Assembly (NCBI GenBank): GCA_000934665.2
Contig: JYFJ02002986.1
Coordinates: forward strand, 1-47,735
Direction: 5' to 3'
Source: Catajapyx aquilonaris
Taxonomy: Eukaryota
Length of the DNA: 47,735 nt
The notes beneath the pieces are model-generated. The model saw only the letters and a list, made by a program, of their open reading frames with translations. It did not search any database and was not told where the DNA came from. Both the position numbers and the translations under genes were made by a program. Shown piece after piece: positions 35,142-43,939 of the stretch (within the stretch, counting starts at the first letter, position 1; the number at the start of each line of letters is the position of its first letter).

Positions 35142-35406
35142 TTAAACGAGCCATACGCAGCAGACTTGTCCGGTGGGACAGTCGTCTGTCCTGGCCAGAT
35201 TACGGACAGTCTCCGGACACGTCTCGACCGGTATGCACTCGCCTCCGGACAGCCGTCTGCAGAGACTATCAGGTGGAAATCCTACAAACAAATTACAGGG
35301 TAAGTAATTAACTGCAATGTAATTAAAGCCGACTAATTTCACCTTCCGTTTGAAGGATCAACCCTGCTGCGATGATCAAAACGAGGAAAACGGCTAGTTT
35401 CGTCAT
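35142..35406 (-). CDS. Secreted 6-Cys peptide P1, tick carboxypeptidase inhibitor-like (exons 35343-35406, 35142-35281)
   Basis: MTKLAVFLVLIIAAGLILQTEG-FPPDSLCRRLSGGECIPVETCPETVRNLARTDDCPTGQVCCVWLV*; TATAAAA at about 35460; AATAAA at about 35011. Confidence 0.9.
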
Positions 35407-35734
35407 GGCTGAAGCAAAGCGGATATCCAGGATCTGAAGAAGTGGAAGTCGGGACCTGCTTTTATATGCACCGGACTTGATTTGGCCTCAGGCCATTCCT
35501 CTGTGTGCGTCATACAGACAGGTTCTCACTACGCGGCAAGTCACGTAACCTTTTTTACTTCTCAGCAGGTGTACACACAATCAATCATGATTTTCAGATT
35601 ACGACATGGGTTGCCCCTAAGCTAATGTTGGGTATTTTTATACAAAGTAAATACATGCAATTAAACGCCACATTTATTTCTGCACAAATAGTTTTCATTA
35701 CAGATTATACGTATGGTATATTCACGCATTGCGA

Positions 35735-35994
35735 TTACTCCTTGGCGATTCCTGGTATGTCAGGAATAGTGAGCACGCAGCATATCTTGCCGTCTTTACA
35801 TGTGCCGTTCTCCGCTGGTACGAAGAAAACTGGCGGACATTGCTGCATCTTCATACACCAGCTGCCAGTCCCTTCAGTGCATCCTCCTGAAAATAATTGT
35901 TGCTCAGTACGATTCGACTTAATTAGGAAAAAATATTACCTTCGACAATGACGACCAGAACGATGCAAATGAAAAATACGGCCAGGCTCTTCAT
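35735..35994 (-). CDS. Secreted 6-Cys peptide P2 (exons 35940-35994, 35735-35886)
   Basis: MKSLAVFFICIVLVVIVEG-GCTEGTGSWCMKMQQCPPVFFVPAENGTCKDGKICCVLTIPDIPGIAKE*; TATAAAA at 36057-36063. Confidence 0.88.
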
Positions 35995-36401
35995 CGTTGG
36001 TGGTGAATCGACAACGTTCTTGGATCTAATAAAGATTATTGTTGCGGATAAGCCCATTTTATACGCAACAGTTGTTTGCATATTGGCCAATTTAGTGCTT
36101 TATTGCCATCTTTTTATTGAGTATTTCTACATACTGCATGTGCGCATGTGAGTCACATGGAGTGTCCAGGCTCTATTGTTACCTCCTGCGCAATTTGAGT
36201 AAGCCTCATGGGACATGCTTGTGATCTGATGAGTCATACAAGCGACGCTGAGAATTACCTGTGCACTATTCAGAAAACTGAGTTTAAGCAGGTGACGGCA
36301 ATGTACTAAAAAACGCTTTTAATTTTTCACATTATTTATTTCCATTCGTCGCTTACATTATGTCGTGTTGGGGAACATTATGTGCGATTGTCAGTAACAA
36401 T

Positions 36402-36646
36402 TTACTTCACGTAATTGCAGCAGGCGGCATTGGCGTCTGGGCATATATTAGCCGGACTGTTCACCGGAGCACTTCCTCTCGGGCATGAACTTGTCTTTGC
36501 GCAGAACCCAGCACACAGAACAATGGCACCTGCAACAATCGGATCAGTTACAAGGCCCCTCACTTGGATGTATTGTTGTACATACCGCCAAAGTGAAATG
36601 CAAACTGGAAGGTAACGAGGAAAATGAGAGCGACCAGGAACTTCAT
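36402..36646 (-). CDS. Secreted 6-Cys peptide P3 (exons 36586-36646, 36402-36529)
   Basis: MKFLVALIFLVTFQFAFHFGG-AIVLCAGFCAKTSSCPRGSAPVNSPANICPDANAACCNYVK*. Confidence 0.88.
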
Positions 36647-37143
36647 GATGATGATGATCAGACGGGCTTATCCAATGGAATGGAGTGAGTCGAAATTGTG
36701 CACAGTTGTTCATTGTTCTATCCGCAGGCATATGCCTATTGAGTTGTTGCCTTTGAATTGTACAATAGTTGTCATCAACATGTTTGGACCATTTGGAATG
36801 AGACAAAAGGTGAACAAGTGAAAACAAATGCTGTGGAAGTGTCTCGGAATGTTTTATTACCATAAAACATTGAACCGTTTTCATCAGTGCGTGACCCTGC
36901 CAGGCACGGTACATTGCATTGCATGATGATTTCAGTGTTAATAGCAGGCGTCAGCGAGACGGGAGCTTATCGTGGGTTTTGTATACGCCAGTTGCTGACC
37001 CGACTGTGCACCGCAAACGAACGTTACTGTGGCTTTGCCAATTGGCCATGGTAACCCGTTGCCATTTTTACCTAAATTCACTAAAAATAGTCTACTTTGT
37101 TATTAAAATTGGTGTAGCATTATTTCCATGCAGTGTGGGTTAC

Positions 37144-37186
37144 CTTCCAAGTCGTTGCGATAAATGACAGCGACCAAAAAATTTAT
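37144..37186 (-). pseudogene. Relic signal-peptide exon of the peptide family
   Basis: ATA AAT TTT TTG GTC GCT GTC ATT ... TTG GAA G|GTAAC resembles P3 exon 1 with ATG changed to ATA; no 6-Cys exon 2 downstream. Confidence 0.45.
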
Positions 37187-37492
37187 GACGGTGTTGATCA
37201 GATCGGCATGTGCAAATATATTGTGACAATGCAGCACAGTTGTTATTTTGCTTGCATCATCAGGTTGTATCTGCGGTGCAGTTGGCATGTGTCATTATTG
37301 CCATTGATTGGTACGATGCCTGCCCATAAACACACTTGCATAGTGTGGTGTAAAGTACTGTAAAATGGTTGAGTACATTATTGTCTTTCTAAATGGTCGG
37401 GGAGAATAAAATAAATGCCGAAATTATCTTTCAAAGAGTTGTATTTCCATGTAACATGAGCCGTTTACAAACAGTTCACGGTGTCCGTTCTT

Positions 37493-37763
37493 CTAATACT
37501 TGCGCAAGCGACAGCAGACCTGTCCCGATTCGCAGGCAGCAGAGTCCTCCGATGGAAGAGTTTGACCTGGACAAGTGTCCCCATTAGTGCAAAATCCGAA
37601 GCAGTAAGGCTCATCCTCTGGCATCGCTGCACCTGACACCACACATCAAAGTATCGATAATTACAATAATAATTAATAGTTATAAGTAGAGAGTGTAGTC
37701 TATACCTTCAACCTGAAGCGACCATGTCAACACGGCCAATGCAAATATGAGAGCGATCTTCAT
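37493..37763 (-). CDS. Secreted 6-Cys peptide P4 (exons 37706-37763, 37493-37632)
   Basis: MKIALIFALAVLTWSLQVEG-AAMPEDEPYCFGFCTNGDTCPGQTLPSEDSAACESGQVCCRLRKY*. Confidence 0.88.
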
Positions 37764-41817: not shown

Positions 41818-41979
41818 GGTTGTGTTGATGGGACAGAGTCTGCTGATGAATTGCGCATTTTGCTGATCCATTGTTGCAAATACAGATGTTGCAGGTGGGA
41901 CCGTGCAGGTTACACATTCCGTCAGGAGACTCAGTGGGATCAACACCAAACCATAGATATAATATCTTATGCACCAAAC

Positions 41980-42470
41980 ATGAAGGTCCTATTAGCAACT
42001 CTTATCCTCTGCATGAGCACACTTCTTGCTGAAGGTAACAAAATATTGCAATATGTGTGTCTATCTATAATATTAAAATCCTTGCGGCCGGGGAGTTGGC
42101 CGAGCCCCCTGATTGGTCCGCCGCATATTGTTACCGCCACCTCCCCATTGGCCCGCGTTCTACTCATGCGCAATGGGGGTGTATAAACAACTCCTGTTGG
42201 GTTGCCGGGGAAACTGTCCATTCCCCGGCGATATGGTGAGCCGGATAGGTACCCCAGCCCGTAGGCCTAGAAAAGAGCGAGCGTTTTCCTATAGTAATTA
42301 ATTAAAATTTGATTTTTGCAGGCATTTTGCCAATTTGCAGCGGTGTGTGCGTGGCCCAAGGGAATCCGTGTCCTGAAGGAAGTTTTCCAGCGGATATGGC
42401 AAGTAATGTAGCCTGTGGAACTGGAAAAATATGCTGCAACTGGCCTGAAATAATTGACCCCATGGAATAA
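41980..42470 (+). CDS. Secreted 6-Cys peptide P8 (exons 41980-42034, 42322-42470)
   Basis: MKVLLATLILCMSTLLAEG-ILPICSGVCVAQGNPCPEGSFPADMASNVACGTGKICCNWPEIIDPME*; intron enlarged by an insertion. Confidence 0.88.
42064..42294 (+). mobile_element. Non-autonomous Helitron-like insertion in the P8 intron
   Basis: GC-rich about 230-bp block absent from the paralog introns; starts A|TCTATAATATTAAAA and ends with a short stem then CTATAG|T; no TIR or TSD. Confidence 0.45.
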
Positions 42471-42729
42471 TAAGAGTTAAAGTGTATGTCAGTTCAAAGT
42501 AACACTTAGGTGGAAATAAAAATATTGGAAATAGTCACACATGATCATTAATTGTTGTTGCTATGGGCAAAAATATGGGGAAGGAAATGTGCAAAATATG
42601 ACTCTATGCATGACAATAGTCCTTGTAAAAGACAAAAGAGCAGGTGTTTCGCTCATTGTCGCAGTTTCGACACACGCAACTTGTTATGGCGTATGACATT
42701 CCAGCATTATAGACTCCGTCAACACTGCA

Positions 42730-42974
42730 ATGAACACCCTGATGGTCGTCCTGATTCTGTGCCTGTGTGCTCTTCTTTCTGAAGGTAACTTGCATTTTAA
42801 ACACTTCATAATATCTGTAAAAATGGTCTGTAATTAAAATGTCACTTTGGTATAGGTATGCCAACGTGCGATAATGTGTGCGTGGCCCAAGAGAATTCAT
42901 GTCCTGAAGGAACATACAAACGGCCTGAGTTAAACTGTGGACCAGGCCAAGTCTGCTGTACCACGCCTCAATAA
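42730..42974 (+). CDS. Secreted 6-Cys peptide P9 (exons 42730-42784, 42856-42974)
   Basis: MNTLMVVLILCLCALLSEG-MPTCDNVCVAQENSCPEGTYKRPELNCGPGQVCCTTPQ*. Confidence 0.9.
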
Positions 42975-43200
42975 TTAGGAATAATGAGGTCTGTTGATGT
43001 ACAATAATTCAAGTAACTTGTACTTGAATGTGGAAATAAAATATCGAAAAAGCAGAGCGGGATATTATTTTCGTACTTTATCGCGGTATGAATAGAGTTG
43101 GTTGCGAACATGTTGTGACGCAGGCATGTGACATTGGAAACAATACAGGAAAACAACAATGCCCATTCCAGCAGGAGACTCAGTGGCATCAACACCAACG

Positions 43201-43458
43201 ATGAAGGTCCTCTTGGTAGTCCTTTGCCTCAGTATCCTTCTTGCAGAAGGTAATCTACACAGCAGTGTGTGTGTGAACCAGAATGTGTCTAACCAAAATG
43301 TGTCTTTTGCAGGTACAATCTTACCAATTTGCGATGGTATGTGCGTGGCCCAAGGGAATCCATGTCATGAAGGAACATATCCGTGGCCTGGGATACCATG
43401 TGGACAAGACAAAGTCTGCTGTACCAAGCCTCAAATTGTTCGACCCCCGGAAGAATAA
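43201..43458 (+). CDS. Secreted 6-Cys peptide P10 (exons 43201-43249, 43313-43458)
   Basis: MKVLLVVLCLSILLAEG-TILPICDGMCVAQGNPCHEGTYPWPGIPCGQDKVCCTKPQIVRPPEE*; the 63-nt in-frame intron is read through by the ORF track. Confidence 0.9.
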   Translation: MKVLLVVLCLSILLAEGNLHSSVCVNQNVSNQNVSFAGTILPICDGMCVAQGNPCHEGTYPWPGIPCGQDKVCCTKPQIVRPPEE

Positions 43459-43683
43459 GACTGGTTGAAGTGTATGTCAGTTCACGTAACTCCTCACCCC
43501 CATCCAGAAAGAAATGTACCCTATACAATTTTTAAGAATATATTATTATATAAAAATAAATAAGTAAAATTTTCAACACAGATATGACTTTTATGACAAG
43601 TTTATTGCTATAACATTTGGTTTTCTGTACAAAAATGTAATACTGAATAACTGGGTAACTACACCGTGATTGTTGAATGTTGG

Positions 43684-43939
43684 TCACCGTTTGAGGCAGC
43701 AGACATGTCCATCTGCGCAATTGTTGAGTCTGAAGTAGTTTCTGTTGGGCACTGGACAGCTCTCCATGGCCATACAGACGCCACTGAATGCGTCACGACA
43801 AAAGTCACCCTGTGCTGGAAATGCTGTTGACAATGAGGTAAAAATAAGTTATTTCGTACCATCACTTTTCACTTTGAAGTACATTACCTTGGGTGCCCAT
43901 TGCTGCAACAATCAGAACCAGGATGACTGCAACCAACAT
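43684..43939 (-). CDS. Secreted 6-Cys peptide P11 (exons 43888-43939, 43684-43823)
   Basis: MLVAVILVLIVAAMGTQA-FPAQGDFCRDAFSGVCMAMESCPVPNRNYFRLNNCADGHVCCLKR*; TATATAAAG at about 44020; AATAAA at about 43601. Confidence 0.88.

Follow-up and report, generated by a model that had tools for sequence, protein, structure and literature searches.

Two-exon genes for putative secreted six-cysteine peptides with a predicted beta-defensin-type fold in Catajapyx aquilonaris

Inventory and structure of the genes

The DNA analyzed here is a 47,735-nucleotide (nt) stretch of the Catajapyx aquilonaris genome (assembly GCA_000934665.2, contig JYFJ02002986.1), referred to as the window, which contains an array of short two-exon genes encoding putative secreted peptides with six cysteines, the last two of them adjacent (CC). 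A six-frame scan of the whole window, to which the family count applies, with a relaxed six-cysteine motif ending in CC gave 12 matches, 11 at 35142-43800 and one at 5685-5786, compared with a mean of 0.08 and a maximum of 1 in 200 local shuffles used as a chance control. First exons were paired with motif exons by an exhaustive search for start codons, donors, and acceptors, and each motif match proved to have, close by, a hydrophobic first exon that ends in phase 1. All 11 genes that an earlier note on this DNA had placed in the array (P1-P11) were recovered in this manner (Table 1); its count of 11 intact genes stands but was incomplete, since a twelfth gene (P0), located 29 kb from the array, and decayed copies had been missed. 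The genes described there as a tandem array are indeed clustered, but their orientation is mixed (seven on the minus and four on the plus strand), with one head-to-head pair (P7/P8).

In P1-P11, exon 1 comprises 49-64 nt ending in phase 1 and is followed by a GT-AG intron of 53-73 nt (287 nt in P8). Exon 2 of each gene encodes exactly six cysteines, spaced in P1-P11 as C-x(3|7)-C-x(4-6)-C-x(10-14)-C-x(5-6)-CC, and the precursors are 54-68 amino acids (aa) long. The previously described layout of signal exon, phase-1 intron, and six-cysteine exon was found in all 11 genes, and recomputation returned the same cysteine spacing and the same net charge range (-4 to +2). Upstream of each of the 12 genes there is an ATG exon that is hydrophobic and has a phase-1 donor, a combination present at 7 of 1903 background YAG sites; this contrast is somewhat favored by the exon filter having been set after the genes were seen. 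AATAAA occurs at most 136 nt from the stop codon in 11 of the 12 genes (background 8.9%, p 3e-11). The codon split by the intron encodes glycine or alanine in all genes except P7 (aspartate), and the residue two positions before it is small or aliphatic, fitting the (-3,-1) cleavage rule as judged by eye, in 10 of 12. Only 1-9 residues separate the split codon from the first cysteine, and a stop codon follows the last cysteine after 1-13 residues, so that each of the 12 genes encodes a single domain and then ends. For P6 and P10, the first exon of a neighbor ranked first or level and the proximal exon was chosen; P5, P7, P10, and P0 also possess an alternative in-frame upstream ATG. On these sequence criteria, the 12 genes are real beyond reasonable doubt, and their splicing and expression are predicted from the same features. 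The motif-shuffle, signal-exon, and AATAAA contrasts rule out an artefact or an array consisting only of pseudogenes. An Rfam search of positions 34900-47735 returned no match.

Table 1. Intact genes, remnants, and regulatory candidates of the six-cysteine peptide family in the window
Feature	Position	Strand	Exon 1	Intron (nt)	Exon 2	Precursor (aa)	Class	Net charge	Remarks
P0	5685..5941	-	5941-5875	71	5803-5685	61	C-x3	-2	flanked by two ligand-gated-channel (ionotropic receptor-like) open reading frames
P1	35142..35406	-	35406-35343	61	35281-35142	67	C-x7	-2	four-residue tail resembling TCI; TATA-like box at -62
P2	35735..35994	-	35994-35940	53	35886-35735	68	C-x7	-1	TATAAA at -69; second acceptor AG 3 nt downstream
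P3	36402..36646	-	36646-36586	56	36529-36402	62	C-x3	+2	
P4	37493..37763	-	37763-37706	73	37632-37493	65	C-x3	-4	sole gene without nearby AATAAA
P5	40517..40740	+	40517-40565	59	40625-40740	54	C-x3	0	CVAQ subgroup
P6	41106..41356	-	41356-41299	53	41245-41106	65	C-x7	-3	
P7	41570..41817	-	41817-41763	68	41694-41570	59	C-x3	-2	
P8	41980..42470	+	41980-42034	287 (enlarged)	42322-42470	67	C-x3	-4	CVAQ subgroup
P9	42730..42974	+	42730-42784	71	42856-42974	57	C-x3	-2	CVAQ subgroup
P10	43201..43458	+	43201-43249	63 (in frame, stop-free)	43313-43458	64	C-x3	-2	CVAQ subgroup
P11	43684..43939	-	43939-43888	64	43823-43684	63	C-x7	+1	TATA box at -84; five aromatic residues
Decayed P0 duplicate	5240..5463	-							73% over 237 nt, E 1.5e-35; promoter and exon 1 only; ATG at 5316; frameshift; GT donor lost
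Decayed P3-like copy	36970..37215	-							blastn 76% over 54 nt, E 3.7e-5, and three-frame reading; similar 5' region; start codon ATA at 37186; donor GTAACC retained; only two Cys downstream
Orphan P10-like promoter/5' region	40363..40470	-							84% over 110 nt to P10 upstream region, E 1.9e-28
P7-P8 spacer	41818..41979	.							162 nt between start codons; two opposed copies of shared 5' element

Family unity, turnover, and selection

The peptides fall into two spacing classes, C-x7-C in four genes and C-x3-C in the remaining eight, and their pairwise identity outside the cysteines ranges from 7 to 61%. A profile of the C-x3 members nevertheless scores all four C-x7 members (11-19 bits), and an element of about 35 nt just 5' of the start codon is common to P5, P6, P7, P8, and P10, so that P6, a member of the C-x7 class, shares it with the C-x3 genes P5, P8, and P10. 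The upstream sequences of P0 and P3 are likewise similar (82% over 49 nt, E 3.8e-5). Shared non-coding 5' sequence and the cross-class profile scores therefore indicate that both classes form one family. A maximum-likelihood tree of the 12 peptides supported only one of nine branches, which joined long branches. The subgroup with the pattern CxxxCVAQxNxCxEG (P5, P8, P9, and P10), recognized earlier, is present. The net charge of exon 2 is negative in nine peptides (isoelectric point 4.1-5.1), neutral in one, and weakly positive in two (P3 and P11), and a C-terminal glycine, the amidation signal, occurs in none of the 12. The start of the mature exon of P1 (35242-35279) is an imperfect palindrome, the opposite strand of which encodes 9 of 12 identical residues, with a weaker case in P6; it probably results from the Pro-Pro and Gly-Gly codons.

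TATA-like boxes lie 62-84 nt upstream of P1, P2, and P11. The hexamers CATGTG (p 0.0008) and ACAAT[GA] (p 0.0003) were nominally enriched in the promoters; they were rejected as promoter signals, as none of 2079 6-mers survived correction and the promoters are paralogous. NF-kB and GATA sites were not enriched upstream of the genes (one of nine kB-like sites, p 0.38).

The birth-and-death evolution suggested earlier is backed by the two remnants and the orphan promoter (Table 1). No second exon of the decayed P0 duplicate was found. The orphan promoter sits upstream of P5, inverted and head-to-head with it, and reading of the frames downstream revealed no coding remnant. The spacer between P7 and P8, with its opposed copies of the 5' element, is a probable bidirectional promoter. 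The CVAQ subgroup is recently duplicated in a relative sense only, its synonymous divergence (dS) being 0.15-0.75 for mature and 0.5-1.3 for signal exons. Purifying selection within it was seen in the signal exons and in the N-terminal half of P5, P8, and P10 (nonsynonymous divergence, dN, 0.07-0.10 vs. dS 0.40-0.50), and the C-terminal half is freer (dN 0.31-0.67, all six pairs). Relative to P10 and P5, the synonymous divergence of P9 in exon 1 far exceeds that in exon 2 (Fisher p 0.017 and 0.035; two of six pairs, uncorrected), which suggests gene conversion; P9 is possibly a chimera of an old exon 1 and a recently converted exon 2. Although dN exceeds dS in two of six mature-exon pairs, the contrast made for P9 and P10, the stronger of the two, was not significant (dN 0.28 vs. 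dS 0.15, Fisher p 0.59) and has little power because only 35-45 codons are compared, so the proposed fast evolution was not borne out as positive selection by this check. Local expansion by duplication, inversion, conversion, and loss appears to be the best reading of the array.

A 2.4-kb gene-free gap in the array (37900-40330), which contains AT-rich degenerate repeats (39000-39560), hairpins (38199-38283 and 39430-39514), and a short stretch recurring at 46604-46658, is probably mobile-element debris. The enlarged P8 intron results from a GC-rich insertion (42060-42300) of which the window holds no second copy.

Predicted fold and relatives

AlphaFold models were prepared for P11 and P5 (predicted local distance difference test, pLDDT, 69 and 78) and used for a VIA structural search over 48,161 chains. 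Among the 25 matches listed for P11, 21 had defensin, crotamine, or tick carboxypeptidase inhibitor (TCI) in the title and three were cnidarian peptides; they included 7lzl (Z 3.4, root-mean-square deviation 1.6 over 34) and helianthamide bound to alpha-amylase. Nine of the 14 matches of P5 were beta-defensins, defensin-like peptides, or crotamine, and Foldseek returned similar kinds of match for both models, none at E <= 0.001. The match lists are weak but consistent, and it is this consistency, not any single score, that supports the beta-defensin-type fold postulated earlier. All 12 products are secreted-type peptides of 35-50 aa with six cysteines and a terminal CC, and the fold matches would imply disulfide pairing 1-5, 2-4, 3-6. 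For both models, the N-terminal part of Cypridina luciferase (PDB 24nk_A, residues 28-72) ranked first or second among the matches (Z 3.5 and 2.8), a hint that this ostracod enzyme may hold a defensin-like module.

Kinship with TCI, also proposed previously, is supported for P1 (E 0.0011 with 2k2z and 0.007 with 1zlh). P1 aligns to the C-terminal TCI domain; the two have CCVWL in common, and the four-residue tail is as long as that of 2k2z. Across 44 aa, P1 shares 41% identity with domain 2 of a Danaus protein, a cluster mate of which is named 'Carboxypeptidase inhibitor'. The short hydrophobic free C-terminal tail is presumably a functional element of TCI. TCI (PDB 1ZLH, 2K2Z), which is among the structural matches of P11, and the TCI-like proteins of insects and centipedes (Danaus P0007/P0013, U-TPTX10-Tp1, and U-scoloptoxin19-Sm1a) share with the present peptides a six-cysteine domain ending in CC and the GGxC motif. 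In contrast, all 12 peptides have a single domain, compared with two in TCI and the insect proteins, and the first spacing is 6 in TCI-like proteins and 7 or 3 here. A two-domain TCI-like peptide has been described from caterpillar venom, with relatives in Helicoverpa, Bombyx, ticks, and centipedes (PMC11335235).

A profile search covering 1.84 billion representatives gave eight matches. The best four were mosquito proteins with 14-17 short clip-type six-cysteine repeats (Pfam CLIP_1), followed by the Danaus two-domain protein, an unnamed two-domain protein, and a sea-slug protein with three such domains; the eighth (P0008) was a low-complexity false match and was dropped from later comparisons. 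Neither this search nor a word-seeded search with the 12-sequence alignment (none of 42 candidates at E <= 0.01 among proteins of 20-86 aa) found a close single-domain relative, which agrees with the lineage-specific expansion assumed earlier but means little, because short two-exon genes are often unannotated. With the Danaus protein as query, only the protein itself was returned (one of eight candidates), and the C-x3 profile found nothing relevant among PDB sequences.

A similar organization is seen in lobster panusin and panulirin, which also comprise a signal peptide and one six-cysteine domain and include one protease inhibitor: panusin is described as antimicrobial and panulirin as inhibiting trypsin (PMC10886324). 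They, too, come from several genes, Homarus having a small family of five panusin genes (PMC8221624). The lobster peptides are cationic (+4 and +8) and amidated, with a first spacing of x6 and a third of x9 (PMC10886324), whereas the 12 genes described here are far more divergent and encode peptides with charges of -4 to +2, a first spacing of x3 or x7, and a third of x10-14. Vertebrate beta-defensins are two-exon, clustered, and subject to birth and death (PMC7203481; lizard clusters in PMC12278569), and both they and big defensins carry a phase-1 intron 5' of the cysteine-rich region (PMC7203481), as do all 12 genes here. The predicted fold and clustered layout are shared with beta-defensin, ovodefensin, and big defensin genes; the present peptides differ in being mostly anionic, in falling below the Pfam Defensin_beta cut-off, in their introns of 53-287 nt, and in lacking the N-terminal hydrophobic domain of big defensins, given the few residues before the first cysteine. 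CG10433/AGAP007049/AAEL009861 of Diptera is likewise secreted and contains a beta-defensin domain (PMC3320635); the representative of the AAEL009861 cluster is 130 aa long, about twice the present peptides, and is a lead only, compared by feature score without alignment. The Atlas feature search also connected P10 weakly (0.82) with an arthropod cluster in which 17% of members are assigned to Defensin_beta and 12% to Inhibitor_I68. The title of a reference cited in PMC11767717 mentions a double beta-defensin of a marine invertebrate.

As judged from sequence comparison, the array does not belong to the TCI/I68 family (one domain), the panusins (charge), the big defensins, or the clip proteases, and would function most like arthropod beta-defensin-fold inhibitors. 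Of the novelty claimed in the earlier note, the unusual expansion stands, but the scaffold is already on record from lobsters, ticks, a centipede, Lepidoptera, and Diptera (PMC7203481, PMC8221624, PMC11335235, PMC3320635). Titles and abstract openings, which covered few subscription papers, yielded no single-domain anionic beta-defensin-like gene cluster from a non-decapod arthropod. The terms 'defensin' and 'SLPTX19' are absent from the main text of two centipede venom papers, and a term search of PMC6878950 and PMC11170834 gave no match; supplementary venom and immune-gene tables in the literature could list similar peptides.

Proposed function and genomic surroundings

We slightly favor the view that the family, evolving by birth and death, encodes secreted peptides that bind proteins or inhibit enzymes rather than membrane-lytic antimicrobials. 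The signal peptide would be cut at the intron-split residue, releasing peptides of 37-49 residues (4-5 kDa) built on the beta-defensin (trans-defensin) scaffold. The three disulfides would hold together a small beta-sheet core, and variable loops and tails would provide the working surface. Extracellular protein targets may be bound, with hydrolases being inhibited or immune or reproductive proteins modulated, and different paralogs could address different targets. Precedents for enzyme inhibition on this fold come from arthropods and cnidarians, namely TCI (carboxypeptidases), panulirin (trypsin), and helianthamide (amylase). Membrane lysis normally needs a cationic amphipathic surface, and is disfavored because 10 of the 12 peptides have no cationic net charge. 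The most specific prediction, which we regard as less likely than not, is that P1 acts as a single-domain metallocarboxypeptidase inhibitor.

Several observations weigh against a family of inhibitors on this fold. All structural matches are weak (Z 2.1-3.5), the predicted template modelling scores are 0.42 (P11) and 0.44 (P5), and the top matches were a stretch of Cypridina luciferase for P11 (Z 3.5, tied with avian AvBD3 at Z 3.4) and a sea anemone peptide of 'uncommon fold' for P5, again tied with defensins. None of the 12 peptides reached a Pfam family cut-off: the best score for Inhibitor_I68 (PF10468) was that of P1 (16.9 bits vs. 25, E 0.009; none for the other 11), and for Defensin_beta (PF00711) only P0 was reported (11.5 bits vs. 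21, E 0.31). Inhibition cannot be generalized to the family, because the TCI-like tail (CCVWL plus one residue) occurs only in P1 and in none of the other 11 peptides, tails across the family range from 1 to 13 residues, and the four-gene C-x7 profile matches TCI only at E 2.6. Charge does not sort function cleanly either, as the inhibitor panulirin is strongly cationic, and by whole-protein score the top profile matches are clip-repeat proteins. A phase-1 intron after the signal peptide is common in secreted proteins and is for this reason weakly diagnostic of the defensin lineage. The nasonins of Nasonia are one example (PMC2853521).

Among the alternatives, reproductive or glandular secretion (seminal fluid, egg coat, or accessory glands), as for CG10433, is a claim about tissue that would be compatible with a protein-binding mechanism, and we regard it as unlikely. 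The top Atlas feature match of P10 was the cluster of AAEL009861 (0.85), described as the homolog of a beta-defensin-domain protein from Anopheles accessory glands (PMC3320635); fast turnover, acidic charge, and the upstream regions without NF-kB or GATA enrichment also fit. However, Atlas scores below 0.9 are leads only, the P10 query included the retained intron, P1 gave only an unnamed cluster (0.77), and AAEL009861 is also induced by Wolbachia (PMC3285598), hence not purely reproductive. Less likely still is a direct panusin-type antimicrobial action on the membrane or cell wall, for which the predicted fold, the two-exon clustered layout known from vertebrate beta-defensins (PMC7203481, PMC12278569), the activity of lobster panusin (PMC10886324), and the weakly cationic P3 and P11, the latter with five aromatic residues, could speak; the acidic character of 9 of the 12 peptides, compared with +4 in panusin, and the lack of kB or GATA enrichment upstream argue against it.

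The likeness to short clip-domain repeats was overlooked in the earlier note, and it raises the improbable reading that the peptides are stand-alone, shortened clip domains serving as decoys or adaptors in serine-protease (melanisation/Toll) cascades. The repeats of the four best library matches (PF18322 CLIP_1) are mostly spaced C-x3-C-x5-C-x(10-21)-C-x5-CC, matching the C-x3 class, and P5 (E 0.12; best, 13.2 bits vs. 26) and P8 (E 1.2) gave sub-threshold matches to CLIP_SPH_mas. Whole-protein scores are, however, inflated by repeat number: per domain, the C-x3 profile scores clip repeats at 18-19 bits and TCI-like domains at 14 bits, whereas the C-x7 profile scores TCI-like domains at 18-22 bits with no clip repeat reported, and hhalign assigned a probability of 31% to a clip-repeat protein compared with 89-91% for two TCI-like proteins. 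Moreover, none of the 12 peptides matched Pfam CLIP or CLIP_1, and the mosquito repeats lie within proteins of 800-1100 aa, most of which end in a protease-like domain, whereas the peptides here are free and do not precede a serine protease(-like) domain. No solved clip domain was among the matches listed in the four fold searches with P11 and P5, in a Z range too low to exclude the family. The least probable reading, to which we give very little weight, is that the peptides are toxins or deterrents made by a venom or defensive gland. Among the structural matches, crotamine and the platypus defensin-like peptides have this fold, caterpillar and centipede venoms contain TCI-like peptides (PMC11335235), and toxin genes often form tandem arrays (PMC12704794). 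Against this reading, positive selection was not significant in the P9-P10 contrast. Nor do the peptides have a cationic surface like that of crotamine, and the animal is not known to be venomous.

The reading as secreted protein-binding or inhibitory peptides also has a broader form that we hold to be doubtful. The locus could be the arthropod counterpart of the vertebrate beta-defensin locus, both going back to one ancestral trans-defensin gene, as the phase-1 intron common to them would indicate, and could encode free single-domain forms of a module doubled in the carboxypeptidase inhibitors of ticks and insects and repeated as short clip domains, with P1 as a one-domain carboxypeptidase inhibitor and the cluster as a diversified library of anionic inhibitors. 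If this were true, one arthropod cluster would link three families usually treated apart. The scaffold itself is known in arthropods (panusin, panulirin, TCI, and CG10433); the unusual feature is its expansion to 12 single-domain, mostly acidic members, and lineage-specific expansion of a familiar scaffold is a common pattern for secreted cysteine-rich peptides. Reviews of 2020-2021 describe beta-defensin-like peptides of moulting animals as nearly confined to lobsters and horseshoe crabs (PMC7203481, PMC8221624), and the big defensin review gives panusins as the only other ecdysozoan case (PMC7203481). TCI-like and CG10433-like proteins indicate that the fold is wider than these reviews imply, and the fact that standard open reading frame (ORF) calling and Pfam miss a 12-gene expansion suggests that such arthropod repertoires are undercounted. 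The cluster alone reveals no new mechanism; its small peptides can be synthesized and provide material on the question whether the beta-defensins of arthropods and vertebrates have a common ancestor.

The window is intron-containing animal DNA, in which Pfam identified two long ligand-gated-channel ORFs, an Sds3-like gene, ERp29, two ATP_bind_1 (GPN-type) genes, and a ubiquitin hydrolase. Identity of the ERp29 exon to named database proteins does not exceed 59% (mayfly), and arthropods account for the majority of named matches. A tree of this ERp29 with 16 named matches out of 118 did not place the animal, which is taken to be an arthropod remote from the well-sampled groups. The two long uninterrupted ORFs on the minus strand (1873-3828 and 6835-8739), between which P0 and its decayed duplicate lie, match Lig_chan weakly and are probably intronless divergent ionotropic receptors. 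The ATP_bind_1 genes (GPN-type GTPases, 9800-12400) are arranged tail to tail on opposite strands, the minus-strand gene containing a short tandem repeat near 12250-12350. Next to the array, 240 nt from P1, lies a plus-strand multi-exon gene (32500-34904) with a probable signal peptide, a few cysteines in its small early exons, and a Thr/Ser/Arg-rich last exon of 600 aa, for which Pfam gave no match. By eye, tRNA-like B-box sequences were noted at 40880-40905 and 44660-44720 (none at Rfam cut-offs), which are perhaps remnants of short interspersed nuclear elements, and an inverted repeat at 45540-45880 (arms at approximately 45590-45630 and 45800-45850) is possibly a small non-autonomous transposon.

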